A DNA stretch of 48,828 nucleotides, taken from IMG/VR virus record IMGVR_UViG_3300045988_154803. The stretch is one strand, 5' to 3'. Source of the stretch: a virus (lineage: Duplodnaviria; Heunggongvirae; Uroviricota; Caudoviricetes). The translations under genes and the position numbers were made by a program. Positions 8,514 through 35,502 of the stretch are shown here, piece after piece. Below the pieces are notes generated by a model. The model saw only the letters and a program-made list of their open reading frames with translations. It had not been told where the DNA came from and searched no databases. How positions within the stretch are numbered: position 1 is the first letter of the stretch; every line of letters begins with the position of its first letter.

Positions 8514-9025
8514 TGATGGCCCCCGTCATTTCTGGTGCTTTTCACCGTGCGGCTTCTTAAAAACCTGCCATCACGAACAACAGACACTTCTCGTTTACCC
8601 AACCTCATTTCACGGCGGTAACATTCAGAAAATGCCTCGTCCGGCATCATATAAATGCGACGCTTCGCCTCCGTATCCAGAAGGGAACGGCTTGGGGTTA
8701 CATATAAAAACGACTCATCAATAGGGACAAAACCACGAGCAAGAATTGCTGGCAGAATGCCAGGAAGAACGCAGAAAACAGCTCCACGATGCAGCAACAT
8801 CTGGTACTCCATGACCTCCGTTATCCCCGTGACTACTGTTACGGTGTCACGTCTGTTACGGCTGGCAACCAGTCGCTGCACACGTCCAATTTTCTGATCT
8901 ACAGATAGATGTTTGCTATCGTTATCAATATGATCGATAACAAACCCTTTAATCGTTTGATCAAGGTAGTGCACCACCTTCGATTGAATCTGGTGATTAT
9001 CACCAAAGAAGGCCAGAATCATCAT
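8510..9025 (-). CDS. Hypothetical early protein
   Basis: 171-aa ORF, operon position downstream of cro-like gene. Confidence 0.4.
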   Translation of the reverse strand: MMILAFFGDNHQIQSKVVHYLDQTIKGFVIDHIDNDSKHLSVDQKIGRVQRLVASRNRRDTVTVVTGITEVMEYQMLLHRGAVFCVLPGILPAILARGFVPIDESFLYVTPSRSLLDTEAKRRIYMMPDEAFSECYRREMRLGKREVSVVRDGRFLRSRTVKSTRNDGGHQ

Positions 9026-9516
9026 TCCTCAAGCCTCCCAAGTGCTGAACGCCGGGCGTTGCTAATCTCCTTATGAATCAGCTCGATATCGCTGGAATCT
9101 TTATTCTTAAACTCCAGCATGGCAATCGCATCACGAACCTCTGAAACGGTTACGTGTGAGTGTTTCCAGCGAGCAATGAATCGCGGACCGCGTAGATTGC
9201 AACGCTCCGCAGGCATCCCCAGCTCAGAGAAAACCGCTTTCAGCCTTGATAAGCAGTTAACAGGGAGATTCCCTTTGATCTTGTTCTGCCGAACCGATGT
9301 GCCATCGCTACGCTGGCGCTGACGTTCGGCAAAATCTGCCGCCCATTGCTGGACGTTAATCCGGCCTTCCGAATACGCCACCAGCAGCGTCAGGTTATCC
9401 GCACGAGGGAATCTCTCGAAGCGATACCAGGCACCAATCAGTGATGACGTAAAGCCAAACTTTCTGGCAACACCAATTTGGCCTCCATTCTCGTCAACCC
9501 ACTCCTGAAAGGTCAT
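9022..9516 (-). CDS. Cro/YdaS-like HTH regulator (N-terminal domain) with C-terminal extension
   Basis: GGQIGVARKFGFTSSLIGAWYRFERFP resembles YdaS/Cro-type HTH; divergent from CI across operator cluster. Confidence 0.5.
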   Translation of the reverse strand: MTFQEWVDENGGQIGVARKFGFTSSLIGAWYRFERFPRADNLTLLVAYSEGRINVQQWAADFAERQRQRSDGTSVRQNKIKGNLPVNCLSRLKAVFSELGMPAERCNLRGPRFIARWKHSHVTVSEVRDAIAMLEFKNKDSSDIELIHKEISNARRSALGRLEE

Positions 9517-9534
9517 TTAACGAACTCCAGTTAA

Positions 9535-9652
9535 ACCACGATATGTGGTATTAAAACCACATATTGTGAGTTTTTCAATGGGCGAAACAAAAAATAACCT
9601 TCTATTTGTGGTCCACCTCTCGTCTTACCATGTGAAAACCACTAAATGTGGT
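9535..9652. promoter_or_regulatory. Immunity operator/promoter region: three ACCAC-N5-GTGGT-type palindromes
   Basis: ACCACGATATGTGGT (9535-9549), ACCACATATTGTGAG (9556-9570), ACCACTAAATGTGGT (9638-9652). Confidence 0.6.
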
Positions 9653-9689
9653 AATGTATAAATAACCCACCATTCACGATTGATGAGAC

Positions 9690-10346
9690 ATGAAAAGCAA
9701 CGACGAGAACATCAAGAAAGAAATAGGTCTGCGCATTCAGACTCTACGGAAACAATCCGGCATGACTGCCGGAGATCTCCAGCAAGTCACTGGAATAGGC
9801 TTAAGCACCTTGCAGAACTATGAGGCCGGATTAAGACAACCATCTATACCTGCCATCAAGAAAATCGCGCACGCCCTGAAAGCATCAGCGCCTTATATCG
9901 CGTGCTTAACAGATAACCCGTTCCCACCCCAGAATACTAACGCTCCTGTTATTCCTGGGCTTGTAGCTATAAAAAATGACATAGCATCGCACGCCGGAGA
10001 AAAGCCAGTGCTGGCGATAGAACAGGAGATTCTACGAAGCAAGAACATCAACCCATCGTCTCTGTCAGTTCTCCAGAGCAACGATGAGTTAATGTCACCA
10101 ACAATATCCCCAGGCTCCCAAGTCCTGATTAATACAGACGATACAGAGATTCATGAGGGGATCTATGCCCTTGAAGACAGAAATGGCCCGGTTGTTTTGA
10201 GGCACTGTAGAGTCATACCGGGTGACAATGCTGTTATGCTGTCAACCGAAAGGGATGCTGAAATGAACACTAAGCATCTGAATAACGAGGAATTTAAGCG
10301 TTATAAAGTTCTGGGCCGCGTAGTTAGTGTTGTCAACTGGTTATGA
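9690..10346 (+). CDS. CI-like phage repressor (XRE HTH + S24/LexA-like C-terminal domain)
   Basis: N-terminal IGLRIQTLRKQSGMTAGDLQQVTGIGLSTLQNYEAG; C-terminal domain alignable to S24 fold. Confidence 0.8.
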   Translation: MKSNDENIKKEIGLRIQTLRKQSGMTAGDLQQVTGIGLSTLQNYEAGLRQPSIPAIKKIAHALKASAPYIACLTDNPFPPQNTNAPVIPGLVAIKNDIASHAGEKPVLAIEQEILRSKNINPSSLSVLQSNDELMSPTISPGSQVLINTDDTEIHEGIYALEDRNGPVVLRHCRVIPGDNAVMLSTERDAEMNTKHLNNEEFKRYKVLGRVVSVVNWL

Positions 10347-10438
10347 TACACAGCACGGCGAAAGCCGTGCATTTCTACGCTCAAAAAAACCACGCTTTGT
10401 GGTTTTGACAACATGTGAAAGTATAAAAGAGGCTACGC

Positions 10439-10813
10439 ATGGAATTACATACAGCCAATAAAAACGAAACTCTGATCACTGCTGGAATCGAAATCCAAGC
10501 GTTGAACATAGCGATTGAGTGTATGTTATGCCAAATCATTGATAATGAGAAAGATATCGACTGGATAGAATCTATCCTTCATCTGGCATCAGAACAAAAA
10601 GTCTGCCTCAAAACGGCCTTACAATACGATGTGCCAGCGGTATCGAAGCTGTGCCAGCCATTGATGGCATATAACAGGGCTATTATTTCTGTATGCCTCA
10701 TGATTCTCGATGAAACCCCCCCTCTTAGCGACCGCTCAGAAGCTGCTCTAACCCTCTCACGTAAACAGCGACAGCTAGCAAATCAACTGATATCAACGAT
10801 AGCTGACCTCTGA
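10439..10813 (+). CDS. Hypothetical protein downstream of cI
   Basis: 124-aa ORF; position analogous to exclusion genes in other phages (inference only). Confidence 0.4.
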   Translation: MELHTANKNETLITAGIEIQALNIAIECMLCQIIDNEKDIDWIESILHLASEQKVCLKTALQYDVPAVSKLCQPLMAYNRAIISVCLMILDETPPLSDRSEAALTLSRKQRQLANQLISTIADL

Positions 10814-10830
10814 CTGCAAGCGGGCTAACG
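10809..10830 (+). terminator. Putative terminator hairpin after cI operon
   Basis: aagcgggc-taac-gcccgctt stem-loop followed by AT-rich tract. Confidence 0.4.
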
Positions 10831-10842
10831 CCCGCTTATATG

Positions 10843-10948
10843 ATTATAGATTTATATAATTATATAAAACGCTTTTCATCAGCCAAAAAGTTGGTTATGC
10901 TTACCTCGTTCTATAAATATAGATTTATAGAATTATATAACCAAACAC
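10843..10948. promoter_or_regulatory. parA upstream region with AT palindromes (candidate centromere/operator)
   Basis: Perfect 16-bp palindrome TTATATAATTATATAA at 10843-10858 and a related repeat CTATAAATATAGATTTATAGAATTATATAA. Confidence 0.5.
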
Positions 10949-11617
10949 ATGGAGTCTCGACAAATGACTATCTCTGTAGGTATTTTCAACGGAAAAGGCG
11001 GCGTAACCAAATCAACAATTGCCCGTGCTTTAGCAGTTGCTTATGCAAAGGCTGGCTGGAATGTATGCCTGATCGATATGGATGTGCTTAACGGAACGGT
11101 AACGCGTTGGGTACAACGCAGAATGGCCAACAATATCGAACCAGCAATCGCGGCGCAGCCGTGCGGCACACCATCACAAGTCCAGAAAATCATCGAATCA
11201 GAAGTATACGACCTGGTTATCGTTGATGGCGGTGCCTACGCATCTGAATCAGTACCGAAGCTCTCTGAATTTCTGGATATGGTTATTTTGCCAACCAGAT
11301 TCTCTACCGATGACCTGGAAACCACCGTTAACACAGCTCACGGCATCGTTAAAAAGGGTGTACCAATCAAGAAAATTTGCATGGTGTTTTCCGGCGCGGC
11401 TGAAAACGAAGCTGACTATATTGAAGCCCAAGAGTACCTGGCTAATACGCCATACTTTGTTGTCGATAAGTACATTCCCCACAAGCCAGCTCTGAGCAAA
11501 GCTCAGGATAAGGGCTTAAGCCTCATTGAGTGCTCATACGTTGCGCCACGCAAAAAGGCAGACGACGTTATTCAGGGGATTATCAACCAGCTTGAGGCTC
11601 TGACTACTGCCGCGTAA
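10949..11617 (+). CDS. parA: ParA-family partition ATPase (small, type Ib-like); likely start at 10964
   Basis: Deviant Walker A GKGGVTKST; ~217 aa without N-terminal HTH. Confidence 0.85.
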   Translation: MESRQMTISVGIFNGKGGVTKSTIARALAVAYAKAGWNVCLIDMDVLNGTVTRWVQRRMANNIEPAIAAQPCGTPSQVQKIIESEVYDLVIVDGGAYASESVPKLSEFLDMVILPTRFSTDDLETTVNTAHGIVKKGVPIKKICMVFSGAAENEADYIEAQEYLANTPYFVVDKYIPHKPALSKAQDKGLSLIECSYVAPRKKADDVIQGIINQLEALTTAA

Positions 11618-11629
11618 TATATAATTATA
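11618..11629. repeat. TATATAATTATA palindrome between parA and downstream RHH gene
   Basis: Perfect 12-bp palindrome. Confidence 0.6.
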
Positions 11630-11660
11630 GTTTTATAGATTTATATAAGAGGGGATACAC

Positions 11661-11909
11661 ATGGCCGCACCATCAAAACCACCAAAGAAGAACAGCAAAG
11701 GCGTACCGCCATCGATCGAACAACCGCAGGTTTTCGACCCGACTGAAACGCCAACCAGAACCAAATCAGGTGGGGCACAAATGGCGTTTAACGTCGACCC
11801 TGAATTTAAACGCGAGTACAAAACGTTCGCCAGCTCAATGGATATGTCATTGAAAGAAGTGCTGACAAAATCTTTTGAGTTACTCAAGGCTCAATACAAC
11901 CAGAAGTAA
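11661..11909 (+). CDS. Small ribbon-helix-helix-like protein, ParG-like centromere-binding partner
   Basis: 82 aa; basic disordered N-terminus then AFNVDPEFKREYKTFASSMDMSLKEVL pattern. Confidence 0.55.
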   Translation: MAAPSKPPKKNSKGVPPSIEQPQVFDPTETPTRTKSGGAQMAFNVDPEFKREYKTFASSMDMSLKEVLTKSFELLKAQYNQK

Positions 11910-11938
11910 GAGAAGGTGACGGCCTCCAGCGCCAACTG

Positions 11939-12121
11939 TTGGCCGTCGCGACACAACAAGGGGAATTTGTTATGTCCGAGCAACAATATACACGGTTACT
12001 AAAAACTCGTCTAATAGACCTCAAACGGCTGCAAGCTGGCCGCTTATTTGCCCTGCTATCCACCAGGCCAGAATGGGTACGTGAAGCAGTTCTGAAAGGC
12101 TTAATGCGCTCCAGCGTTTAA
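11939..12121 (+). CDS. Small hypothetical protein
   Basis: 60-aa ORF following partition genes. Confidence 0.3.
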   Translation: MAVATQQGEFVMSEQQYTRLLKTRLIDLKRLQAGRLFALLSTRPEWVREAVLKGLMRSSV

Positions 12122-12129
12122 ATTCAACC

Positions 12130-12153
12130 ATAAAAAAGCCCCCGAAGGGGCCT
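12130..12153. terminator. Hairpin terminator (U-run on minus strand, A-run on plus)
   Basis: gcccccgaaggggc stem-loop flanked by A6 on plus strand. Confidence 0.5.
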
Positions 12154-12725
12154 AATCGCTACTTGCTGCTAATGTTTATCGTCACATTCAGAGCGTTATC
12201 AGTAATCTTCCAACCCTCCCCATGTGGCGTAAACAAAGCTCCAGTAACAACGATAAAAATACACATACAGTATTTTTTCATTGTATGGCCCTTACAGGCC
12301 GTTTCACGGCATCCCCACCGACGAAAACAACGCGAGAGCAAGCACGGCTGCTTGTGCTTGCATGTACGGCAACGGAGAATCCTCCCCTAAAGTCGGTGCC
12401 CGGGTGCGAATCGGCGGGAAGGTCCACAGGTATTTTACGATTATTTTAAGATTAGTAATAGGAAAGAAATTAAACGAAAAAACTCGTTTATTTTCACAAA
12501 ATCAGTAACCTACCCACAATCTGTGAGTTTGCAGGCACAACAAGAACCACAATTTTTTGAAGCATAATAGTGGACTATTATTACCTTTTGGGTAAAATTA
12601 ACTTGCTGCTTGTGCTTGCGTGGTTGTTTATACAACAACGTAATGCTGAAAGGACCGCGAATCCGATCAGCACGAAAGAACCGTCCTCAATAGGGCGGTT
12701 TTTTTGTTTCTGCCTACCAATAAAC

Positions 12726-12738
12726 CCACGCTATGTGG
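12726..12738. promoter_or_regulatory. Fourth CCAC-N5-GTGG operator-like palindrome
   Basis: CCACGCTATGTGG abutting candidate -35 TTGTCT. Confidence 0.5.
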
Positions 12739-12773
12739 TTGTCTCTGTTAAAATCCCGCCGTATTGACATGAA

Positions 12774-12873
12774 TGCGCCATTGGTGGACACTTTCCGAGC
12801 CGTAGCAAAATCTACGGCCGGGATTGGAACCCCGATAATCATCATGGCGCATACCGCGTTAGCGGTTTTTTTA
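12774..12873 (+). ncRNA. Candidate small RNA (~100 nt) ending at intrinsic terminator
   Basis: Candidate promoter TTGTCT-N17-TATTGA; internal hairpin ccgtagcaaaatctacgg; terminator ccgc-gtta-gcgg + T7 at 12854-12872. Confidence 0.3.
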
Positions 12874-13037
12874 TGCGTAAAGCACTGCTACACCCAAATT
12901 ATGGTGGGGCGTGCGGGGGAGTCGTAAGACTCGCCGGATTCCATGGTGACCGGTAGTTCCAACCCTGTACGTCTCACCACCCAATGATTGGAACCAGACG
13001 GTGGTGAGTATCCTTAACCTTTAAGGGAACTATCACC

Positions 13038-13229
13038 ATGACAAACTTACCCCATGACTATTACGTCAACCTCGTAAAGATCCTTCTCAAGAAAGCCTCA
13101 TACGCCGATAAACTCCGCCTGGCTGAAATCATCGAGCGCGAAGCTATGCGCATCGCCAGCAACGATAACGCTGTTTCTGACGCAAAAATCTCCCTCGTAA
13201 CCAAAGTAGTTATGGGAGGTACAAAATGA
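13038..13229 (+). CDS. Small protein upstream of antirepressor
   Basis: 63-aa ORF with stop/start overlap (ATGA) to antirepressor. Confidence 0.4.
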   Translation: MTNLPHDYYVNLVKILLKKASYADKLRLAEIIEREAMRIASNDNAVSDAKISLVTKVVMGGTK

Positions 13230-14368
13230 AAACGCTTCCGACCGTTAACACCCTACAGCCTATCCTGCATAACCAGATCCCCGTTATCACTAGTGAACTT
13301 CTGGCGCAGTTATACGGAACAAAAATCAAAAACATTTCTGATAACTTTCTGAACAACACGACGCGATTCATAGCCGGAAAGCATTACTTTAAAATTGAAA
13401 AAAACGAATTACGCGAGTTCAAGAACAGACCTGAAACAATCGGGTTAGTTGGTAAAAATGCCCGCTCCCTAATTCTCTGGACCGAACACGGAGCAGCCCG
13501 TCACGCCAAAATGCTCGAAACCGATCAGGCTTGGGATGTGTTCGAAAAACTGGAAGACTGCTATTTCAACCAGAACGCACAAACGGCCGCGACCGTAACC
13601 GTCTCACCAAACAATGCTCGTGAGGTTGTCGATACGCTCAACGCCAAACCGATGTTTTACATTAAAGTGTGCAACAACGAGCCACTCACAACCTCAGCCG
13701 ATGTTGCCCAGGCATTCAGCACCACAAACAATTCCATCGTTATGGCCATCGATGCGTTACGCATTCCTCGCACAGCTGCGGCGCGTCATTTCTTTAAAGA
13801 GCAACGACCGTTGGAAGGAAGCGACCGCGAAATAACAATCTATCGCATGACAAAAGACGGATTTACCTTGCTCATGGAAAGTATCGACGGTCCAGGCGTG
13901 AAGGATATCAAGCTGGCCTACATTGAAGCCTTTAACGCTATCAGCAGCGTGTTAAAAACACAGTACGAGCGCGATCTGGCTAAACGACTGTACCAGGAAA
14001 AAACGATTATCCGCGCGGCAACAGAGCATAATCGGCTATTAACGGAACCGAACTACAGGAAGGAACTAATCAAGGAGTTTGACAAGGCAACAGGGAAAAC
14101 CAAAGCGGCGCTAAGTCTGCCAGCAATGACTCAGGAAAATGTGATATCAGCCTTACTTCTTGATCTGCTCAGAAACGCCAGAGCACTTATCAGCTTTGAC
14201 GAAAACCTGAATCCTCAGCTCAAGCTACTACCACCGACAGGCAAAGTAGTCGACCAGGCTGATCACAACAGCATACTCAGCGTACTGGATGCAAACCTGC
14301 CAGCCAGGACACTACAGGATCTGATAAAAACATGTGCTGATAAGCTGGCACAGAAAAGCAGACCATAA
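13226..14368 (+). CDS. ant: Antirepressor-like protein (ORF6N/KilA-N-type N-terminal domain + Rha-like domain)
   Basis: N-terminal IPVITSELLAQLYGTKIKNISDNFLNNTTRFIAGKHYF; central PLTTSADVAQAFSTTNNSIVMAIDAL. Confidence 0.7.
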   Translation: MKTLPTVNTLQPILHNQIPVITSELLAQLYGTKIKNISDNFLNNTTRFIAGKHYFKIEKNELREFKNRPETIGLVGKNARSLILWTEHGAARHAKMLETDQAWDVFEKLEDCYFNQNAQTAATVTVSPNNAREVVDTLNAKPMFYIKVCNNEPLTTSADVAQAFSTTNNSIVMAIDALRIPRTAAARHFFKEQRPLEGSDREITIYRMTKDGFTLLMESIDGPGVKDIKLAYIEAFNAISSVLKTQYERDLAKRLYQEKTIIRAATEHNRLLTEPNYRKELIKEFDKATGKTKAALSLPAMTQENVISALLLDLLRNARALISFDENLNPQLKLLPPTGKVVDQADHNSILSVLDANLPARTLQDLIKTCADKLAQKSRP

Positions 14369-14600
14369 CTACAAGGGGCTACGGCCCCTTACTCTTTTCT
14401 CTCTTATCAACACCAGAGACTTTCTGAAAATCCTTTCGAATAGCGTCAGCGTCACGCGCCAAGCCCATACTCGAACGTGTCGCCATATGACGAAAATGAT
14501 CAACTGCCGGAAACAAAGAAATAATGGACCCAATAGCTTGCAGCAAACTCGCTTTTCTACGCATCATAATTCCACCATAACCGATAACCACCCTTCAGAC

Positions 14601-15176: not shown

Positions 15177-15449
15177 TCATTTGATCCCTTGTTCCAATTC
15201 TGCCGACACTTTAACCTTTTCCCATACAAGGGTTTGCAGCCTTAACAGAATCGCATCTTTATCAAGGTGTGAAAGATCCTTAACCATATCGTCAAACGAC
15301 AGAACGCGAATGGCCATCTCAATGACCCTCGGCGGCTCCCCCTTCTCATATCGCTTATATGTAGCCAACGATATCCCAAACTCTTCGGCTGCTCGCTCCT
15401 GCGTCCAGTTCATCCCACGACGCCATAATTTCAATTCGTAACCCGTCAT
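15177..15449 (-). CDS. XRE-family HTH transcriptional regulator
   Basis: LKLWRRGMNWTQERAAEEFGISLATYKRYEKG. Confidence 0.6.
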   Translation of the reverse strand: MTGYELKLWRRGMNWTQERAAEEFGISLATYKRYEKGEPPRVIEMAIRVLSFDDMVKDLSHLDKDAILLRLQTLVWEKVKVSAELEQGIK

Positions 15450-16623: not shown

Positions 16624-16923
16624 TCAGATGTTAAACGCTATTCGTTTTCCTGTGGGAAGCTCAACATCCAGGCTTAATTTGCCTCCCATAGCTTCAACGT
16701 AACGCTTTAATGTCGCCAGCTTTAAATCATTTCCGCGCTGCTCCAGCTTTGTTACTGCTGGCTGGCTTATACCCATCGCCTCAGCAACCTGTTTTTGTGA
16801 TAACTGGAGTTCTTCACGCATCATCTGCAAGCCGACCTCAAGAATCATCTCATCTGCCATTTCTTTAATTCGCGCCTGGCTTTCCGGTGAACGGCTGGCA
16901 ATCGCCTCATCTAATGTTCTCAT
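16624..16923 (-). CDS. higA: HigA-like XRE HTH antitoxin
   Basis: QKQVAEAMGISQPAVTKLE HTH; immediately downstream of and overlapping toxin gene. Confidence 0.65.
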   Translation of the reverse strand: MRTLDEAIASRSPESQARIKEMADEMILEVGLQMMREELQLSQKQVAEAMGISQPAVTKLEQRGNDLKLATLKRYVEAMGGKLSLDVELPTGKRIAFNI

Positions 16924-17276
16924 TACTTGCTCTCCAGTGTGTTCAGATGTGCTGCAAACTCATCCTCAGCTATACGCACCAGTTTTTCATAAAACCGCTT
17001 ATCGTTACTTTTGTCTCCTGCACAAAGAACGATGGCCCGGCGAATCGGATCGAACGCATAAAAGGCTCTTATCGGACGGCCAGAAAACTGAACGCGAAGC
17101 TCTTTCATATTTTTGTACCGAGAACCTTTTACGGTATCGGCATATGGCCTGGGTAACTCAGGTCCGTAAACCTGTAGCTTTTTCAAATCAGCCAAAACCT
17201 TTTCCTGAAGAGCGTCTTCTTGCTCATTTAGCCAGTCGTCAAATCGCTGGCTAAAAAGTACCGTCCACATGCTCAA
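16923..17276 (-). CDS. higB: HigB-like RelE/ParE-superfamily toxin (Gp49-like)
   Basis: 117 aa; toxin-first arrangement with HTH antitoxin; sequence pattern recalled from Gp49/HigB family. Confidence 0.65.
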   Translation of the reverse strand: MSMWTVLFSQRFDDWLNEQEDALQEKVLADLKKLQVYGPELPRPYADTVKGSRYKNMKELRVQFSGRPIRAFYAFDPIRRAIVLCAGDKSNDKRFYEKLVRIAEDEFAAHLNTLESK

Positions 17277-18732: not shown

Positions 18733-19713
18733 TTAATGTTGGAGTGATTTCCAGGTCTTTCTTAGCCTGTTATAACGCTGCTCAACGAGGGATCGTAAAT
18801 ATGCAAGGTCAGCACCTGGATACATGCCATCAGCAAATTCCTGGCTAACCTCTCTAGTGATTTGATGACGAAGTTCGGCCTCTCCCTTTTCCTGAACAAG
18901 ACGCGCAGCTCTCTCCGCTGCTTTCTGTTTTGCCTTTATCTCTCTGGCCGTCTTCCTCTGACGCCATACATTCTCCATCTGCTCCTGAATAACAATACGC
19001 TTATAATCAGCCTCCGTTATCGCTTTTTTAAGCCGTTCGCTATTCTTCGCATTGAAGTAATTAAGTTTCTGGCTAACCGCACGTCTCCATGCTTGTTCAG
19101 TAATACCAACGATTTCCAGCAGTTGATCACGAATCTCTATTTTCGCTGGCCAATACTGTTTATTCACCCGATCCCAGCGACGTTCATAATCAATAAAACC
19201 TAACGCTTTCAGTTGCGACAACGCCCTTGTACAGCGCGTTATAGACTTGTTCCCAGCTTCGGATACGGTAGACAGGCCGCAAAAATCAGCCAACGCCTCA
19301 GCACTGGCCAGAACCCGCTTAGAAATGATGTTTACATGGTGCAAAATCGCAGCAATCACAGCATTAATCGCCCGACGACGATGCTCGTTTATCCGGCGTT
19401 TCCGCTCTGACGGTTGATTAACGTAGAACGCAACCTCACACGTAAGATCACGACCATTAATGCGCTGTAAAGCATCAGATAACACCAGCGGCAGCTTGTG
19501 CGTATGGTGCTTTGGAGGCTGGAACTCCGGCGACAAATTACAAACGTAAGCTGAACGTAGAGACGGCATTGGTCTATCCATATGTTCGCTCTTGCGTCCA
19601 CGGAAAACCAACGTATAATGGGAGTTGTCGAGGCGCCCATGGATTGTTTTTGTTGGTTTTCCGTGGATGTCGCAAGAAGCCCGCAGATTTATCTGCGGGC
19701 TTTTTGTTTCCAT
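18733..19713 (-). CDS. repA: IncFII-type RepA replication initiator (RepA1-like); true start possibly internal
   Basis: RRRAINAVI...GLSTVSEAGNKSITRCTRALSQLKALGFIDY aligns by eye to R1/R100 RepA1 block RRRAIDALL...GLATESAAGKLSITRATRALTFLSELGLITY (recalled). Confidence 0.8.
   Translation of the reverse strand: METKSPQINLRASCDIHGKPTKTIHGRLDNSHYTLVFRGRKSEHMDRPMPSLRSAYVCNLSPEFQPPKHHTHKLPLVLSDALQRINGRDLTCEVAFYVNQPSERKRRINEHRRRAINAVIAAILHHVNIISKRVLASAEALADFCGLSTVSEAGNKSITRCTRALSQLKALGFIDYERRWDRVNKQYWPAKIEIRDQLLEIVGITEQAWRRAVSQKLNYFNAKNSERLKKAITEADYKRIVIQEQMENVWRQRKTAREIKAKQKAAERAARLVQEKGEAELRHQITREVSQEFADGMYPGADLAYLRSLVEQRYNRLRKTWKSLQH
19679..19710 (+). terminator. Plus-strand intrinsic terminator antisense to repA 5' region (candidate CopA-like RNA 3' end)
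   Basis: gcccgcag-atttat-ctgcgggc followed by TTTTTGTTT. Confidence 0.4.
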
Positions 19714-19894
19714 ATCTGGTCATTTTCCAACCAGACACCCACAATCATAACCACGTTACGTGGTTTTCAGAGAACTCTACCACAACACTTTCGGTCATGC
19801 ACGAAGTCTCTCACTGATCGAACGATAATCCACCAGTAAAAGGATCTAAATTGGATCTCGTTTTGCGAGCATCATACTACTGGCCTAACTCCAG

Positions 19895-20449
19895 TCAATG
19901 ATTCCCAGCCGGAAACCTGCGGTAAAGCGTGGATAAGGTAACATCGAAGATAATCGCTATCCGCTTACGTGAAACACCATTCGCAATAAGCCTTCCGATC
20001 TGTTCCCATTGCTCTGGTGCCAATTTTGAGCGGCGTCCTCCTATCCTGCCGTTAGCCCTTGCCACCGCCAATCCTGCACGCGTTCTTTCAATCATATTTT
20101 CCCGCTCCATCTCTGCGACTGCACTCAGCATCGTGTAGGCAAAGCGGCCAATTGAAGTGCTAATTTTTATCCCTTCCGTAATCGAAATAAACTCAATGTT
20201 GTTTGATAAAAAATGGTTAAGTAAATCAACAAGATGAATCAGAGAACGCCCCATTCGGTCCAGCTTCCAGACAATAACCGTATCGCCCGGCCGTAACACC
20301 TTAAGTAGCTTATCAAGTCCTGGTCGTTTTGATTTAGCACCGGATATTTTATCTTCAAAAATCTGGTCACATCCTGAACTCCTGAGCGCCTCCAGTTGTA
20401 ATTCCAAATTCTGGTCAAAAGTTGACACCCTCGCATAACCATATTGCAT
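19895..20449 (-). CDS. Gin/Hin/Cin/Pin-family serine DNA invertase
   Basis: 184 aa; YARVSTFDQ catalytic Ser motif, WKLDRMGRS, C-terminal HTH; alignable along full length to Mu Gin as recalled. Confidence 0.95.
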   Translation of the reverse strand: MQYGYARVSTFDQNLELQLEALRSSGCDQIFEDKISGAKSKRPGLDKLLKVLRPGDTVIVWKLDRMGRSLIHLVDLLNHFLSNNIEFISITEGIKISTSIGRFAYTMLSAVAEMERENMIERTRAGLAVARANGRIGGRRSKLAPEQWEQIGRLIANGVSRKRIAIIFDVTLSTLYRRFPAGNH

Positions 20450-20539: not shown

Positions 20540-20563
20540 ACGGTAAACCGAGCCGGGAACGCC

Positions 20564-21400
20564 GTGCAAAAAAATGGCGATACCTTGTCCGGTGGACTTA
20601 CTTTTGAAAACGACTCAATCCTTGCCTGGATTCGAAATACTGACTGGGCAAAGATTGGATTTAAAAATGATGCCGACAGCGATACTGATTCATATATGTG
20701 GTTTGAAACAGGTGACAACGGCAATGAATATTTCAAATGGAGAAGCCGCCAGAGTACCACAACAAAAGACCTGATGACGCTGAAATGGGATGCACTAAAT
20801 ATTCTTGTTAATGCCGTCATTAATGGCTGTCTTGGAGTTGGTACGACGAATGCACTAGGTGGTAGCTCTATTGTCCTTGGTGATAATGATACCGGATTTA
20901 AACAGAATGGAGACGGTATTCTTGATGTTTATGCTAACAGTCAGCGTGTATTCCGTTTTCAGAATGGAGTGGCTATTGCTTTTAAAAATATTCAGGTAGG
21001 GGATAGTAAAAAGTTCTCGCTATCCAGCTCTAACACATCCACGAAGAATATTACCTTTAATTTATGGGGTGCTTCCAACCGTCCAGTGGTTGCAGAGTTA
21101 GGCGATGAGTCCGGATGGCATTTCTATAGCCAGCGAAATACAGATAACTCGGTAATATTTGCTGTTAATGGTCAGATGCAACCCAGCAACTGGGGGAATT
21201 TTGATTCCCGCTATGTGAAAGATGTTCGCCTGGGTACGCGAGTTGTTCAATTGATGGCGCGAGGTGGTCGTTATGAAAAAGCCGGACACACGATTACCGG
21301 ATTAAGAATCATTGGTGAAGTAGATGGCGATGATGAAGCCATCTTCAGGCCGATACAAAAGTACATCAATGGCACATGGTATAACGTTGCGCAGGTGTAA
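20564..21400 (+). CDS. Alternative tail-fibre C-terminal variable domain (promoterless; fused to constant N-terminus after inversion)
   Basis: Frame open from crossover site; C-terminus ...RPIQKYINGTWYNVAQV parallels expressed fibre C-terminus ...RPIQYCINGTWYNAGSI. Confidence 0.75.
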   Translation: MQKNGDTLSGGLTFENDSILAWIRNTDWAKIGFKNDADSDTDSYMWFETGDNGNEYFKWRSRQSTTTKDLMTLKWDALNILVNAVINGCLGVGTTNALGGSSIVLGDNDTGFKQNGDGILDVYANSQRVFRFQNGVAIAFKNIQVGDSKKFSLSSSNTSTKNITFNLWGASNRPVVAELGDESGWHFYSQRNTDNSVIFAVNGQMQPSNWGNFDSRYVKDVRLGTRVVQLMARGGRYEKAGHTITGLRIIGEVDGDDEAIFRPIQKYINGTWYNVAQV

Positions 21401-21403
21401 GTT

Positions 21404-21931
21404 ATGCAGCATTTAAAGAACATTAAGTCAGGTAATCCAAAAACAAAAGAACAATATCAGCTAACAAAGAATTTTGATGTTATCTGGTTATGGTCCGAAG
21501 ACGGTAAAAACTGGTATGAGGAAGTAAATAACTTTCAGGACGACACCATAAAGATTGTATACGACGAAAATAATATTATTGCCGCCATCACCAAAGATGC
21601 CTCCACGCTTAACCCTGAAGGTTTTAGCGTTGTCGAGGTTCCTGATATTACCGCCAACCGACGTGCTGATGACTCAGGTAAATGGATGTTTAAGGATGGT
21701 GCTGTGATTAAGCGGATTTATACGGCTGACGAACAGCAACAACAGGCCGAATCACAAAAGGCCGCGTTGATTTCCGAAGCTGAATCAGTCATCCAGCCGC
21801 TGGAACGCGCTGTCAGGCTGAATATGGCAACAGACGAGGAACGCACACGACTGGAAGCATGGGAACGCTACAGCGTTCTGGTCAGCCGTGTGGATACGGC
21901 AAATCCTGAATGGCCACAAAAGCCTGAATAA
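21404..21931 (+). CDS. Tail fibre assembly chaperone (alternative orientation)
   Basis: Paralog of 21960-22493 product ([22 protein letters not shown] vs [22 protein letters not shown]). Confidence 0.75.
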
Positions 21932-21959
21932 AAATTAAGGCCCGATAGCGGGCCTTGTT

Positions 21960-22493
21960 TCATTCTGGTTGTTCTGGAAACGTTACTGGCAGGCTGGAGG
22001 TGTCTGTGGATTCGACCTTCTGCGCATAGAGCATCCACTCGGTTAATTTTTGTTTATTCTCGTTGGAAATGATACCCAGCCGTAGCTGTGAGTCCCATAG
22101 CTGGGTTTTATCCCTGACGAGCTGTAGCAGGCTTTGCTTTTCATTTTCCGCTTGTTGCCTCTGCTCTTCCTCGGTATAAGTTCGCTTTATCACTACGCCA
22201 TCTTTGAACAACCATTTCCCCGAAATATCAGCCCGGCGATTTGCTGTAATATCAGGTAATTCAACGACGCTTGCGCCTTCCGGATTAATTGCTGAAACAT
22301 CCTTTTCAATACAAATAATAACGCCGTTATGGTCATAGACCATTTTCAAAGTGTCTGGCTGGAAATTCTTTTGTTCCTCATACCAGTTTTTTCCATCATC
22401 TGAATAAAGCCATTTGATGTTAAATTGCTTTGTTAGCTGGTATTGCTCTTTTGTTTTAGGGTTGCCAGCAGTAATGTTTTTTAAGTGCATCAT
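21960..22493 (-). CDS. Tail fibre assembly chaperone (currently expressed orientation)
   Basis: Immediately downstream of tail fibre gene; Tfa-like sequence. Confidence 0.8.
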   Translation of the reverse strand: MMHLKNITAGNPKTKEQYQLTKQFNIKWLYSDDGKNWYEEQKNFQPDTLKMVYDHNGVIICIEKDVSAINPEGASVVELPDITANRRADISGKWLFKDGVVIKRTYTEEEQRQQAENEKQSLLQLVRDKTQLWDSQLRLGIISNENKQKLTEWMLYAQKVESTDTSSLPVTFPEQPE

Positions 22494-22495
22494 CG

Positions 22496-24814
22496 TTAAA
22501 TACTCCCCGCGTTATACCACGTCCCATTAATGCAATACTGAATTGGCCTTGCCTGTGTTGTATCAATTAATTCATCACGGTTTCCGTTAACTGAACCCGT
22601 AACGACATAACCTGACCTGTCAGACCAGCCGGGGCCATTCCATGTCTGAACAGATGACAGACCGCCAAGGCGAATACCTGTAATAAACCTTGAGTTACAT
22701 TCTGCCTGCGTATATGCACCAACATCTCCCGCAGAGGGTTTGCGGGTTGTGGTGTAAAACTCTGACCAGTCAGCTTCAAAGCCATAACCATCACGCGCTG
22801 AACGATAAAAGATTCCGCCATTTCTGTAATTCACGCGGAACTGTGCAGCAGGGCAGCTCCCCGTATTCATATTGAAGTGGAGGATTAATGTCGATGCGCC
22901 ACCAATATTTGCGTTATAGACCCCGCTATTCCAGTTCCAGCCAACAGCTTTATCATTTCCGACAGTGCTTCCTGTTTGCCCTAAAGCAAATGCAGGTTGT
23001 TGATTTTTCGTGTTGTAGTCTCGTCGCCAGCCAGGAGCGTAAGCATCACCATGATTAATATAAGTGAATTGAGCGTTAGTAATTCCTCCACCGCTGGACG
23101 TGCTCGGCGTGGTAACGCGTATGGTCATTGCGCCGCGAGTGCCAATAACTTCCACCACAGCACCTGCAAGACAAATATTTCCGCAACCTGTATCTGTAAT
23201 GACCTTATTATTTGCATAAGCCCATGAGCCTTTGCACATCCAGTAAGGATGGTTAAATGCTCCCTGACTCTCCAGCCACGAAATAAATTGCGCGGTTGTC
23301 CAGACCTGACTATCGCCACCAATATCCAGCCATGCGCTATATGCGCGGCAGGCCCCAATATTTTTGGTGAAGGTATCTTTTCCCGGAATATCTGCGCCGT
23401 TCTGGTTTTTCTGTAATGCGCCAGAAGCCTGATTTACCGTTTCCTGTAAACCGAGGTATTCGATAACGGCAGCAACGGTCGATTTCGCAAGAATATCCCG
23501 CCCGACTTTTGTCAGGGTTGCCAGGCTGGCGACATCATTCCCCGTAAAATACGGAAACTTGTCTGCCGCAGTAGCAAGCCCGGCCAGCGCCGTCAGGGTG
23601 GCATCTTTCGGTTGCTTACCCGCAAGCGCGTTAGTCATGGTGGTCGCAAAATTCGGGTCGTTTCCCAGCGCCGCCGCTAACTCGTTCAGCGTATTCAGTG
23701 CGTCAGGTGACGAGTCCACGAGGGCAGCGATCGCAGCCATAACGAAAGCCGTGCTTGCGATTTGGGTATTATTCGTTCCCTGTCGCGCAGTTGGCGTTGT
23801 TGGCGTTCCGGTCAACGCAGGACTGTTTAAGGGCGCTTTCTTGTTCGTTTCATCCATTACCGCCTTGACCGCTTTCGATGTCGCGGCCAGTGTTTCAGAC
23901 GTGCTGTTGGTGGAACTACTGAGCTGAGTTATTCCCCTTACAGTCAGTGAAGCTACAGGCACATTTGTTATCTGCTCCCACGAATGCGTGTGATTGGACG
24001 GAGCCTTTCCGGCCGCAAGATCATACGCTGCCTTAACAGCCTTTGGTGTTGCTGCTAGCGTTTCAGACGTGCTGTTGGTGGCACTACTGAGCTGAACAAT
24101 CCCTTTTCGCGCTGTGGTAGCGTCCTGTGCGGTGTATTTGCCATTAGCCAGGTCATATGCTGCCTTAACAGCCTTAGGCGTCGCAGCAAGCGTTTCAGAC
24201 GAGCTATTGGTGGCGCTGCTAAGTTGAACAAAGCCTTTTGAGGTTAAAGTTGCATCAGGATGATTACGTGATTGTTCATGTTTCACAATGGCTTGCTTAA
24301 GCCGCTTTGCTGAAACAGCAAGGGAATCATCTGTACCGTCATCAATTTCTTGTTCATTGGCAAATCTTGCAACCCCAACAACAGTTTCGGTTGCGGGAGG
24401 ATTAATAAACTCAATATCACCAAATGTAATATTTTTAGTATCAAGAGTCTTGATTGCTATGTCACTTGATATTAAAGCAATAGTAGATGATGCTTTATTT
24501 ATTATTGCTTGTTCTTGCGAGTATACAGCAAACAACGTTCCCTTATTTGTATACAATCCTATTGTATGGACAACATACTCATCTTTACTATCATCCTTCG
24601 CCGTTACATGAATTGTATCAGGGGAAACAACTTTGCCACCTATTGTGGTAAGTCGTTTTATTTCGTTTGTTATATTTGTTTGTGAAGTTGACGTGACATA
24701 ATATCTACTACCTAAACCAACAGAAACAATCTCAACTTTATTTGTTCCTGTTTTGTTGGCATTAACCAGCTCCTGACGCCCGGCGTCAGTCATCGTAAAT
24801 AATAATTTACTCAC
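22496..24814 (-). CDS. Tail fibre protein (constant N-terminal ~450 aa outside, variable C-terminus inside invertible segment)
   Basis: 772 aa; repeated SSATNS(T/S)SETLAATPKAVKAAYD collar-like motifs; crossover site lies inside the ORF. Confidence 0.85.
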   Translation of the reverse strand: MSKLLFTMTDAGRQELVNANKTGTNKVEIVSVGLGSRYYVTSTSQTNITNEIKRLTTIGGKVVSPDTIHVTAKDDSKDEYVVHTIGLYTNKGTLFAVYSQEQAIINKASSTIALISSDIAIKTLDTKNITFGDIEFINPPATETVVGVARFANEQEIDDGTDDSLAVSAKRLKQAIVKHEQSRNHPDATLTSKGFVQLSSATNSSSETLAATPKAVKAAYDLANGKYTAQDATTARKGIVQLSSATNSTSETLAATPKAVKAAYDLAAGKAPSNHTHSWEQITNVPVASLTVRGITQLSSSTNSTSETLAATSKAVKAVMDETNKKAPLNSPALTGTPTTPTARQGTNNTQIASTAFVMAAIAALVDSSPDALNTLNELAAALGNDPNFATTMTNALAGKQPKDATLTALAGLATAADKFPYFTGNDVASLATLTKVGRDILAKSTVAAVIEYLGLQETVNQASGALQKNQNGADIPGKDTFTKNIGACRAYSAWLDIGGDSQVWTTAQFISWLESQGAFNHPYWMCKGSWAYANNKVITDTGCGNICLAGAVVEVIGTRGAMTIRVTTPSTSSGGGITNAQFTYINHGDAYAPGWRRDYNTKNQQPAFALGQTGSTVGNDKAVGWNWNSGVYNANIGGASTLILHFNMNTGSCPAAQFRVNYRNGGIFYRSARDGYGFEADWSEFYTTTRKPSAGDVGAYTQAECNSRFITGIRLGGLSSVQTWNGPGWSDRSGYVVTGSVNGNRDELIDTTQARPIQYCINGTWYNAGSI
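23441..23466. repeat. Right inversion crossover site (gix/hix-like)
   Basis: TTCCTGTAAACCGAGGTATTCGATAA, close to Mu gixL as recalled. Confidence 0.85.
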
Positions 24815-24844
24815 GCTTAATTCCTTGAATTAACAAATTGCGAA

Positions 24845-25426
24845 TTAGCACTCGCCAATTAATCGTACATAAGACACAGGCTGACAAGCACCAACAATAC
24901 CGACACCACCAGAAACATTGGCTGCTTGCGAAAATGTAAATAATGTTCTTGCCGACTTTGCGCTCTTGATACTTCTTAACGTATCTTCCAACATCTCTTT
25001 CGAAGGAACGGCACCATCAAAAGAGTTAATCGAAGCAACAATTGAGGCTGTATATGGTTCGCCAGGTGGTGATGTTTCAAACCATTCTGTTATGTTTACC
25101 TCTCCACCCAAGCTATTTACTACATCTTCAACCGCTGCCCTTGTACCCTTTATTCGCTTTGTTCGTATTATTGATTTAAAAACAGAACGCTTTAACGATA
25201 CAGGCCAACTATCCCTCCATGTATCAGCATTCCATTGCCAAGCTAAATGATCGAGAACAACTGAGTCCAGGTTATCAACAACGCTATATATTTCTGTCTT
25301 ATATATTAAATTGTTAATTGCTTGTAGTTCATCATCAATAGCTTTCGACATAGCTATCACGTTGGGATCTCTAGCTAAGTTAGGAGGTAAAACATCCAAC
25401 AAGCTAACATTAAAGATATCAGCCAT
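24845..25426 (-). CDS. Baseplate protein, P2 gpI-like
   Basis: Operon position between gpJ-like and tail fibre; 193 aa. Confidence 0.65.
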   Translation of the reverse strand: MADIFNVSLLDVLPPNLARDPNVIAMSKAIDDELQAINNLIYKTEIYSVVDNLDSVVLDHLAWQWNADTWRDSWPVSLKRSVFKSIIRTKRIKGTRAAVEDVVNSLGGEVNITEWFETSPPGEPYTASIVASINSFDGAVPSKEMLEDTLRSIKSAKSARTLFTFSQAANVSGGVGIVGACQPVSYVRLIGEC

Positions 25427-26543
25427 CCTCTAACCCCGCATACTGGCAATTTATATTTCTCTCTCTGGCGACCTGCGTCTCTCCAACTACAGTAAATACA
25501 GGACTTGATATTTCTAATCTTTTAGCCCCGGCATTTTTTAAACGTTGAATAATTTCATCTGGATTTATATATCTTCCCATAACCGAACGTTGCCATTGTT
25601 TATACTCATCAAGAGCTTTCTCAACCTCACTTTGAATTAACGTTGTTCTGTTTTTGTCCGATGAGTTAATCCAGTATTTAATTATTATATCGTATTCAAT
25701 GCTCTCTGGTTTCTTAACAAGAACTTTATCTGTGAATGGTCGAATATTAGTTGCAGAGAGAACGCTATTTATCTGCTCTAATAGTTCATCAGAAGGTATA
25801 TCCCCGTTCTCTAACAAAGAACGGATTTCTACAGTTCCGGGCGATGGTGTATATACATTCACATCTTTTATATTCTGATTGGCTGTTCTTGTCCAATATT
25901 TATAAGAATCCTCCGGCCCTGCTGTAGACAGTTTTTCCGGCGACAGTTTTATTCTTTCAGCATAATTATCATCTGACTCTGTATCAGCACCAGAATTAGA
26001 TGTTGTTAGATTCCTTACGCTGGAAACATACGGCAACGGAGTCACCAACTCGTTTATTTGCCCAGGTAAAAATCCATTCCCCGATAAGCCAGGTATAACA
26101 GCATATCCTGAGACTGTACCAACTGTTTTCCCAGCTGGTATTTCCAACAAAACATCTGTTTGGAAAATAACACTATTTCCAGTTGAAATTTGAGTGCCAG
26201 CAGGTATTGTATATATCCCCGATAATTTTGTTGACAGATTAAACTCAAATGTAGTCAAGGCAGATTGAGCTTCCAGCCTAGGCGTATCCGTCAGATAGCC
26301 TATATGGTCGAGATATTCACCCCCACCATATGTAAGAAGGTTTTGTTTTGCAGAAAAATCGATAGCTTTTCTTTGCTGTATAATAATCTCACACAATGAC
26401 AAGATGAATAATCTACGTGGATCAGCAGGTGCTAATGTTTCACCTGTTATACTCTCAAAAGCCCTGATTGAACGAGTTGTTATATCAGTCGGGTTAGAAT
26501 CTGCGAAAGTAATATCTGGCAAACCACCGCGCGGCAACGTCAT
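25419..26543 (-). CDS. Baseplate protein, P2 gpJ-like
   Basis: 374 aa; position and size. Confidence 0.7.
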   Translation of the reverse strand: MTLPRGGLPDITFADSNPTDITTRSIRAFESITGETLAPADPRRLFILSLCEIIIQQRKAIDFSAKQNLLTYGGGEYLDHIGYLTDTPRLEAQSALTTFEFNLSTKLSGIYTIPAGTQISTGNSVIFQTDVLLEIPAGKTVGTVSGYAVIPGLSGNGFLPGQINELVTPLPYVSSVRNLTTSNSGADTESDDNYAERIKLSPEKLSTAGPEDSYKYWTRTANQNIKDVNVYTPSPGTVEIRSLLENGDIPSDELLEQINSVLSATNIRPFTDKVLVKKPESIEYDIIIKYWINSSDKNRTTLIQSEVEKALDEYKQWQRSVMGRYINPDEIIQRLKNAGAKRLEISSPVFTVVGETQVARERNINCQYAGLEDG

Positions 26544-35161: not shown

Positions 35162-35502
35162 ATCGGCATTCCTCTGTTAGTATTAACAGTGAGAGTTATT
35201 TCCAATACACCAACATTATCTGATACTTCATCAATAATATAATTTTTACCGTTGATTTTCATTGACTGGTCTTTGACAGGGAGAACAGGAAAATCTTTTC
35301 TTGAAACAAATAATATTATTTGCCCCTGATTTATTCCCTCTGCAAACTCAGCATATGAGCGTTTATTCCGCTCATGAATAAGGTCTGTATCAATAACGGC
35401 AAGGATATCCTTGCCGTCTATGTTATATGTATCGGCAAACTCTTTTTCATTGAGGAATATTGCAGAAATATCTTGCGCTATAACCTCTTTGAAGGAGTTC
35501 AT
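35158..35502 (-). CDS. Putative head-tail joining protein
   Basis: 114-aa ORF; position. Confidence 0.35.
   Translation of the reverse strand: MNSFKEVIAQDISAIFLNEKEFADTYNIDGKDILAVIDTDLIHERNKRSYAEFAEGINQGQIILFVSRKDFPVLPVKDQSMKINGKNYIIDEVSDNVGVLEITLTVNTNRGMPI

Follow-up and report, generated by a model that had tools for sequence, protein, structure and literature searches.

The 48,828-nucleotide virus sequence IMGVR_UViG_3300045988_154803 (Caudoviricetes; that whole stretch is called the window here) represents, almost in full, a circular ~48-kb myovirus phage-plasmid of Enterobacteriaceae. The gene at 9690-10346 encodes a CI-type repressor whose C-terminal domain has a LexA/S24-type fold and has lost the catalytic Ser/Lys dyad. 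In our alignments the Ser nucleophile is replaced by Leu134, and the residue at the Lys general-base position is probably Arg171 rather than Leu170. Since both dyad residues are lost, the domain would be a pseudo-peptidase from which self-cleavage is not expected. Based on these observations we favor, with a probability of roughly 60%, a reading in which this pseudo-S24 protein is the master repressor of the phage-plasmid and is inactivated from outside, the best candidate for the inactivator being the antirepressor-like protein Ant encoded downstream.

The repressor open reading frame (ORF) has identical boundaries in the Prokaryotic Genome Annotation Pipeline (PGAP) annotation of the near-identical plasmid NZ_CP023368, where its product is named "helix-turn-helix domain-containing protein". 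The protein matches the PHROG family phrog_4, "transcriptional repressor", over residues 4-217 (E 2.4e-26), and its top matches in BFVD are labeled "Repressor protein CI". Pfam Peptidase_S24 (PF00717) aligns to residues 113-212 with 18.5 bits (E 0.0016), under the cut-off of 23.3 bits. The structure model has two domains, with a predicted local distance difference test score (pLDDT) of 91 and a LexA-type beta fold in the C-terminal domain that gives a strong fold match. A usable AlphaFold model of that domain required the inclusion of remote relatives; the 12-sequence family alignment alone gave a pLDDT below 50.

Close homologues of the repressor are few. They fall into 13 clusters of 60-100% identity, all from Enterobacteriaceae and, where the contigs are long enough, on contigs of 46-49 kb. 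The best match outside this family in the phage collection is in Aliivibrio phage H905, at 30% identity, with none closer. Queried with the protein itself or with profiles of the full-length family or its C-terminal domain, PDB sequences gave only helix-turn-helix (HTH) proteins or noise, without any S24 chain. When 1.84 billion cluster representatives were searched with a C-terminal-domain profile, 548 proteins were recovered at E<=1e-3, mostly of 200-250 amino acids (aa), and the extended profile matches UmuD at 1e-4. Because 99 of the 115 aligned sequences match Peptidase_S24, we assign the domain to the S24 superfamily as a diverged member, a homology that for the window repressor is established only through intermediate sequences.

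The original prediction, aligned by eye, had placed Leu at both catalytic positions, with the caution that the alignment could be shifted. Its Ser register proves right, whereas its Lys register was probably off by one residue. Leu134 lies in the motif N131-D-E-L134-M-S-P-T-I139 (nucleotides 10080-10106; D132-E-L-M-S-P-T-I139 is 10083-10106). In a hidden Markov model (HMM) alignment of 163 sequences the motif columns read G(111)-D(110)-S(119)-M(155)-x-P(159)-T(124)-I(102), and Leu134 falls in the column that holds Ser in 119 of the 163. With the extended profile and with MAFFT L-INS-i, LexA S119, UmuD S60, the lambda CI Ser, and 186 CI G118 share that same column, so that three alignments agree on Leu134.

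The strand expected to carry the general base reads V168-V-L170-R171-H-C-R174. MAFFT L-INS-i places LexA K156, UmuD K97, the lambda CI Lys, and 186 CI R152 all on Arg171, and in each of these four references the base lies five residues past the turn residue, matching R171 after G166. The HMM alignment is ambiguous by one residue here, with Lys in the L170 column in 60 sequences and in the R171 column in 46. The predicted absence of Lys holds in either case, as no Lys is found in the aligned strand in any register or in any family member; the only conserved Lys of the C-terminal domain is the near-invariant K116, which lies in the helix before the core. Profile alignment and structure prediction together point to a domain that keeps its S24-type fold with neither Ser nor Lys at the catalytic positions. 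None of the residues L134, R171, D132, M135, P137-T-I139, and H172-C-R174 varies among the 13 family clusters, and the substitutions at L134 and R171 are therefore not a sequencing error or a chance variant. An hhalign comparison of the thin family profile with a three-sequence LexA/CI/UmuD alignment gave a probability of 0.15%; its register was displaced by one residue owing to an extra residue after Ser-Met in LexA and UmuD, and the result was disregarded. The window repressor and the cluster representative P0001 differ at a single residue, 167 (nucleotides 10188-10190), which is Pro in the former and Gln in the latter and lies in the hairpin turn just before the strand bearing Arg171.

The S119A and K156A mutations of LexA abolish its cleavage, and 1JHH and 1JHE are crystal structures of such non-cleavable LexA mutants. 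Judged by this mutant biochemistry, the replacement of Ser by Leu134 and of Lys by Arg171 would leave the repressor incapable of RecA-stimulated self-cleavage, as had been predicted; we consider this conclusion well supported. An Arg is also found at the catalytic-base position of 186 CI (Arg152), according to a 2026 structural analysis (PMC12984324). In the loop equivalent to the cleavage-site region of LexA, the window repressor has Ala102-Gly103 (nucleotides 9993-9998). This pair is not conserved in the family, whose members have AG, SG, TG, PG, or PD there (A, S, T, or P before the loop Gly), and the Gly is absent in P0010.

Loss of the dyad is not very unusual. Among the 142 remote cluster representatives in the C-terminal-domain alignment, 103 have Ser and Lys, 18 have a residue other than Ser together with Arg, nine have Ser and Arg, and seven combine a non-Ser residue with Lys. 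Ser loss and the change of Lys to Arg thus go together (Fisher p 1.2e-11). The Ser is missing from about 20% of the nearest remote relatives, in most cases with Arg in place of Lys, and the residues found instead of Ser are L, A, N, V, Y, F, C, and E. To judge from these alignments, such varied replacement is the pattern of relaxed catalysis and not of a new mechanism.

The likely targets of the repressor are copies of a 15-bp palindrome, ACCAC-N5-GTGGT. With at most one mismatch, this pattern occurs at eight sites in the window, where 0.9 are expected, and none of 100 shuffles reaches eight. The XRE-type HTH domain is predicted to bind three sites at the divergent early promoters (O1-O3; Table 1), one before the orf-parA genes, and one upstream of the IncFII repA gene. 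Four related loci from Citrobacter and Klebsiella (L006-L009), whose repressors are 61-65% identical to that of the window, have sites at matching positions with constant half-sites and differing spacers, which is the pattern expected of a protein-binding operator. In these loci the equivalent of O2 has one mismatch (GTGGG) and keeps the 21-bp spacing from O1. This spacing suggests pairwise cooperativity through the C-terminal domain, and the pseudo-peptidase domain was most likely retained for dimerisation and cooperative binding, as in 186 CI. The palindrome at 10389 could also be read as a weak terminator hairpin; we nevertheless treat it as an operator, given that the relatives conserve the half-sites and not the spacer. 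A tentative, weaker site near isrK (12725) is found at the same offset in L008 and L002 and is absent in L006.

The early-left operon, which is divergent from the repressor gene, starts with a 164-aa gene in the cro position and continues with genes for a Ref nuclease, DUF1064, DUF3560, and other proteins, with lysis genes further on. The repressor thus has the arrangement of a CI-type protein: an HTH and a C-terminal domain, divergence from an early operon, and three operator-like sites in the gap, to which it would bind. From this arrangement we infer that it is a master repressor acting at the early promoters, the orf-parA genes, and repA. The phage-plasmid master repressors P1 C1 and N15 CB typically have dispersed operators through which replication, too, is controlled. 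The repA ORF, as called mechanically, encodes 326 aa. Because its IncFII_repA match begins only at residue 52 and the RepA proteins of the relatives have 277 aa, the true start is probably internal, which would place the 19750 palindrome ~180 bp upstream of repA, as in the relatives.

Downstream of the partition genes lies a module comprising an isrK promoter, an IsrK-type RNA, a C4-type antisense RNA, a 63-aa leader ORF (orf63), and the candidate antirepressor gene ant. The stop codon of orf63 overlaps the start of ant as ATGA (13226-13229). Two single-stranded segments of the C4 RNA, at 12942-12949 and 12954-12960, are complementary over 8 and 7 nucleotides to 13033-13040 and 13026-13032, respectively, and the stretch so covered (13026-13040) spans the Shine-Dalgarno region and the AUG of orf63. 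These complementary stretches are short, and their significance therefore rests on their position and on the precedent of P1. In the P1 immI region, c4 blocks translation of icd, to which translation of ant is coupled. Ant is ~90% identical to AnrP of Gifsy-1 over the first ~118 residues (72% over a 153-residue BLASTP alignment, E 3e-76), and the leader aligns over ~280 nucleotides, isrK included, with the Q-anrP intergenic region of Gifsy-1. The order of C4, leader ORF, and ant, the complementarity, and the ATGA overlap are all those of a P1 immI/Gifsy-1 isrK-type module.

The isrK-C4 order is shared by L006, L008, L013, and L014. P0016 and P0019, the two remote relatives closest to the window repressor, are ~30% identical to it and both Ser-less. 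Their loci contain an early-left operon, a divergent repressor gene, a small ORF, ParA, an 81-aa gene, isrK, and C4, with an ORF6N protein additionally present in L014. This deep co-conservation of the repressor type and the isrK-C4 module is the best evidence here for a joint function.

The ORF6N end of ant (13226-13580) is 90-93% identical in DNA, over ~305 bp, to the ant genes of >200 Shiga toxin (Stx)-converting phages and of Gifsy-1, while the rest is specific to this phage-plasmid family. Ant looks like a recent domain-level mosaic of an antirepressor.

We propose that the C-terminal domain descends from a LexA/lambda-CI (S24) autopeptidase domain, with the fold kept and the two catalytic residues replaced. 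As the repressor would not cleave itself, derepression must come from an outside factor, for which Ant is the best candidate. Translation of Ant would be coupled to the 63-aa leader ORF and blocked by the c4-type antisense RNA; once this block is lifted, Ant would bind and inactivate the repressor. No LexA box links the module to the SOS response: a pattern search and a consensus-scored scan found none in the regulatory half of the window or of any related locus. The only exact LexA-box core (CTGT-N8-ACAG) in the window, at 35174-35189 (CTGTTAGTATTAACAG; 0.5 expected), lies within the virion-gene coding region where two ORFs overlap and is probably not functional. The annotation of NZ_CP023368 contains neither an ImmA/IrrE protease nor a second S24 gene. 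It is plausible, at roughly even odds, that Ant is the inducer of this prophage.

Several points weigh against this proposal. The ant modules of P1 and P22 act mainly at infection or superinfection and are not the normal route by which their own prophages are induced. The Ant module is a mosaic, with an ORF6N part that is lineage-specific; other members have only the Rha and C-terminal part (138-259 aa). L009, from Klebsiella aerogenes, has the same repressor type and operators and lacks the isrK/C4/ant module altogether. The isrK promoter has an operator-like site that is weak and missing from some members, and in the HMM alignments the Lys register remains ambiguous by one residue (L170 vs R171). 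At the site of the Ant module, L009 (12200-14260) carries two minus-strand genes, one of 70 aa and one of 218 aa (phrog_23465). This locus could be a natural test of the need for Ant.

Some of these points are also accommodated by a second explanation, which we regard as rather unlikely. Here the repressor is again non-cleavable, and Ant works at infection or superinfection or on other prophages, with the repressor being inactivated by some other small antirepressor, by host proteases (Lon/ClpXP), or through altered copy number or dilution. The absence of the module from L009 fits this explanation, as does the ORF6N domain shared with Stx phages and Gifsy-1 (~90-93% DNA identity), an indication of a common module that possibly acts in trans. 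No function is assigned to many ORFs of the early-left operon, and antirepressors that act on non-cognate repressors have been documented (PMC3121763). However, isrK-C4(-ORF6N) accompanies the pseudo-S24 repressor even where repressor identity falls to ~30%, neither a LexA box nor a protease gene indicates another route, and AnrP, the closest characterised homologue of Ant, induces its own prophage (PMC4825925).

A more far-reaching form of the favored reading, which we put forward as speculative and unlikely in its entirety, is that of an SOS-blind switch. Through its dispersed operators the repressor would coordinate lytic and par genes with IncFII replication, and the RNA-gated (IsrK/c4) antirepressor would be the sole off-switch. 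The former catalytic cleft (D132-x-L-M-x-P-T-I and R171-H-C-R), where conservation within the domain is highest, would have taken on a new role as a docking surface for Ant or for the repressor's own linker loop. Such an antirepressor may respond to physiological cues and not to DNA damage.

It is improbable that the repressor is mainly a plasmid-maintenance regulator of orf-parA and repA, with immunity provided by another factor such as the c4 RNA or a 90-aa HTH protein encoded at 15177-15449. Its gene does head a conserved block (cI-like gene, orf, parA, and the 81/82-aa gene), and palindromes precede the par genes and lie upstream of repA. On the other hand, the three operators in the divergent region face the early-left operon, the two-domain CI architecture and the phrog_4 match are those of a phage repressor, and the plasmid-maintenance and master-repressor roles are compatible with each other.

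Still less probable is a domain that remains a peptidase through non-canonical residues (for instance Ser185/Thr186, or Cys173 with His172/Arg171) or whose Ala102-Gly103 bond is cut in trans by an active S24 protein. R171-H172-C173-R174, S185-T186, and D132 are invariant in the family, and an Ala-Gly pair is present in the cleavage-loop equivalent of the window repressor. However, H172 and C173 are adjacent on one beta-strand and therefore face opposite sides, Ser is lost in ~20% of the relatives with varied replacements, and 186 CI, which has the same Arg, is known to be uncleaved (PMC3121763; PMC12984324). Trans-cleavage was rejected because the Ala-Gly pair varies in the family, as described above.

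That the substitutions are an alignment artefact, and the protein an ordinary RecA-cleavable CI with both Ser and Lys, is hardly credible, for although the Pfam S24 match is sub-threshold and the hhalign result is non-significant and shifted, the three independent alignments place L134 in an unmistakable x-M-x-P-T-I context, the aligned beta-strand is free of Lys in every register, and the fold match is strong.

The region of the window that carries these genes (9000-14500; 5.5 kb) shares 99.5% identity with E. coli plasmids, NZ_CP023368 (p48) among them, and 55 PLSDB plasmids cover 80% or more of it. Its identity to Yersinia phage vB_YpM_39 is 97.6%, and that of the virion half to Escherichia phage vB_EcoM-613R2 is 98.5%. 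A literature search on these two phages found no paper describing this phage-plasmid. The p48 annotation includes contractile-tail genes, a ClpP-type head protease, and lysis genes, as well as a Ref nuclease, a Cin-type invertase with Mu-like tail-fibre genes, ParA, a HigB/HigA-type toxin-antitoxin pair, and an IncFII RepA.

The small ORF, ParA, and the 81/82-aa gene follow the repressor gene in all relatives down to 30% identity, and the immunity and partition genes form one conserved same-strand block in which an operator-like palindrome separates the repressor gene from the next gene. Between the par genes and the isrK-ant module lies a full-length match to ryfA, a chromosomal E. coli small RNA family, here on a phage-plasmid. 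Tail-fibre and tail-fibre-assembly genes at ~20560-23500, 95-98% identical to those of Mu, D108, and P88, adjoin the invertase gene, and together they probably form an invertible host-range segment. The HigB/Gp49 pair is a plasmid-addiction module on the phage-plasmid. At 21925-25805 of the NZ_CP023368 record (4768-8648 of L001), just upstream of the terminase genes, are three genes for proteins with ParB/Srx N-terminal domains, an unusual multiplicity, and one for a hypothetical protein.

Table 1. Coordinates of the repressor, its putative operators, the isrK-ant module, and other features of the window.
Feature	Position	Strand	Evidence or remarks
CI-type repressor gene, 218 aa, ATG start (XRE HTH and degenerate LexA/S24-fold domain)	9690-10346	+	
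HTH_3 DNA-binding domain, residues 16-69	9735-9896	+	Pfam HTH_3, E 4.5e-11
Linker with strand-loop-strand equivalent to the LexA cleavage-site region	9897-10010	+	Model strands 91-94 and 108-111; loop pLDDT 58-79
LexA/S24-fold C-terminal domain without catalytic dyad	10011-10343	+	
Leu134 codon (TTA), Ser-nucleophile position	10089-10091	+	HMM and L-INS-i alignments
Arg171 codon (AGG), probable Lys general-base position	10200-10202	+	R171-H-C-R174 is 10200-10211, invariant
Operator-like palindrome O1, ACCACGATATGTGGT	9535-9549		Exact copy, intergenic; same position in L006-L009
Operator-like site O2, ACCACATATTGTGAG	9556-9570		Two mismatches; 21 bp from O1
Operator-like palindrome O3, ACCACTAAATGTGGT	9638-9652		Exact copy; 38 bp upstream of repressor ATG
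Operator-like palindrome in gap between repressor gene and 124-aa ORF (parA beyond)	10389-10403		Exact copy; in all four related loci, spacer varies
Operator-like palindrome upstream of IncFII repA	19750-19764		Exact copy; L006-L008 have a site ~180 bp upstream of repA
Tentative weaker operator-like site, CCCACGCTATGTGGT	12725-12739		74 bp upstream of isrK start
Divergent first gene of early-left operon, 164 aa, cro position	9022-9516	-	No family match; synteny in L006-L009, L013, L014
isrK promoter, TTGACA-17-GACACT	12764-12792	+	Invariant in four diverged loci; aligns with Gifsy-1 isrK promoter
IsrK-type RNA with intrinsic terminator	12799-12872	+	Rfam RF01394, 72.5 bits (cut-off 50)
C4-type antisense RNA	12897-12984	+	Rfam RF01695, 84.3 bits (cut-off 45)
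63-aa leader ORF (orf63; icd/orf45 position)	13038-13229	+	phrog_7886; 63-aa ORF kept in L006, L008
Candidate antirepressor Ant, 380 aa (ORF6N, Rha, and C-terminal region)	13226-14368	+	Pfam ORF6N 1.1e-20, Phage_pRha 2.7e-12; PHROG anti-repressor families
124-aa ORF, first gene after repressor	10439-10813	+	
ParA ATPase	10949-11617	+	
81/82-aa gene	11661-11909	+	
IncFII repA	18733-19713	-	Pfam IncFII_repA 4.2e-44
ryfA RNA family	12132-12427	-	Rfam RF00126 full-length, 138.5 bits (cut-off 80)
tRNA-Met, CAT anticodon	956-1031	-	Also in Citrobacter relatives L006, L007
Cin/Hin-type invertase (Resolvase and HTH_7)	19895-20449	-	
HigB/Gp49-type toxin (Pfam Gp49) and HTH antitoxin	16624-17276	-	PGAP: RelE/ParE family toxin and HTH protein

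In public records this repressor is labeled only "XRE family" or "helix-turn-helix domain-containing". Its assignment as a LexA-fold protein without a dyad predicts that induction by RecA-mediated repressor cleavage does not occur in this phage-plasmid group, which includes at least 55 near-identical plasmids from E. coli, E. albertii, and Salmonella in PLSDB, along with the phages vB_YpM_39/41/44, which plate on Yersinia pestis. This bears on whether antibiotics or DNA damage mobilise these phage-plasmids. An RNA-gated antirepressor acting on a pseudo-peptidase repressor would also be a tractable system for asking why dead protease domains persist. As around one-fifth of the nearest cluster representatives are Ser-less, annotation pipelines should be cautious about calling any HTH+S24 protein "LexA-like, SOS-inducible". 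Phage 186, N15, Gifsy, and P1 had already established the principle.

In phage 186 the CI repressor remains uncleaved, its inactivator being the antirepressor Tum (PMC3121763; PMC12984324), and N15 and the Gifsy prophages likewise have non-cleavable repressors controlled by antirepressors (PMC3121763). 186 CI (PDB: 2FKD, 2FJR) has a LexA fold with Gly118 and Arg152 where the window repressor, with its LexA-like fold, has Leu134 and Arg171. The window repressor would work in the same way as 186 CI, but the relationship between the two is structural only, and the window repressor is not a sequence member of the 186 family: BLASTP gives E 11 and there is no HMM match between them, and Pfam Phage_CI_C (PF16452) does not match the window repressor at E<=1 and matches only four of the 115 aligned sequences. 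The N-terminal domains also differ (HTH_3 in the window repressor, Phage_CI_repr in 186 CI), and the full x-M-x-P-T-I "nucleophile peptide" is kept in the window repressor but truncated in 186 CI. Tum is LexA-controlled, whereas the candidate Ant would be RNA-gated, with no LexA box found. 186 CI forms a 14-mer wheel.

Compared with the active S24 proteins LexA, lambda CI, P22 C2, and UmuD, which have Ser and Lys, the window repressor has Leu134 and Arg171, an Ala-Gly pair that is not conserved, and a sub-threshold Pfam S24 match, and it is expected to be insensitive to RecA*. The antirepressors of N15 (CB/AntC) and of Salmonella phage SPC32H (Rep/Ant) are LexA-controlled (PMC3121763 and general background), and the phage collection showed no close sequence relationship between these systems and the window.

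In Gifsy-1, the isrK-orf45-anrP module gates translation of AnrP by RNA through an upstream ORF, and AnrP induces the prophage (PMC4825925). The window resembles Gifsy-1 in the isrK promoter, the IsrK RNA, the downstream C4-like RNA, and the N-terminus of Ant. It differs in having a 63-aa ORF where anrP starts in Gifsy-1 and in the extra Rha and C-terminal regions of Ant. The Gifsy repressors are small (136 aa) and, unlike the window repressor, have no C-terminal S24-like domain. Moreover, the main SOS-responsive Gifsy antirepressors, GfoA and GfhA, are LexA-controlled and located elsewhere, whereas the window has no visible SOS input.

The P1/P7 immI region (a1b1-c4-a2b2-icd-ant) differs from the window module in its other components: P1 C1 is unrelated to the window repressor and has no S24 fold, Ant1/2 of P1 are not ORF6N+Rha proteins, and the replicon and virion genes are different. 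It is nonetheless similar in layout, being carried by a phage-plasmid and having a C4 RNA complementary to the ribosome-binding site and start of a leader ORF that is coupled to ant; matches to the Rfam family of the a1b1 target are found in L013. The window is also like P1 in its dispersed putative master-repressor operators, which include one at the replication gene, in its Ref nuclease, and in its probably invertible Cin-type tail-fibre segment.

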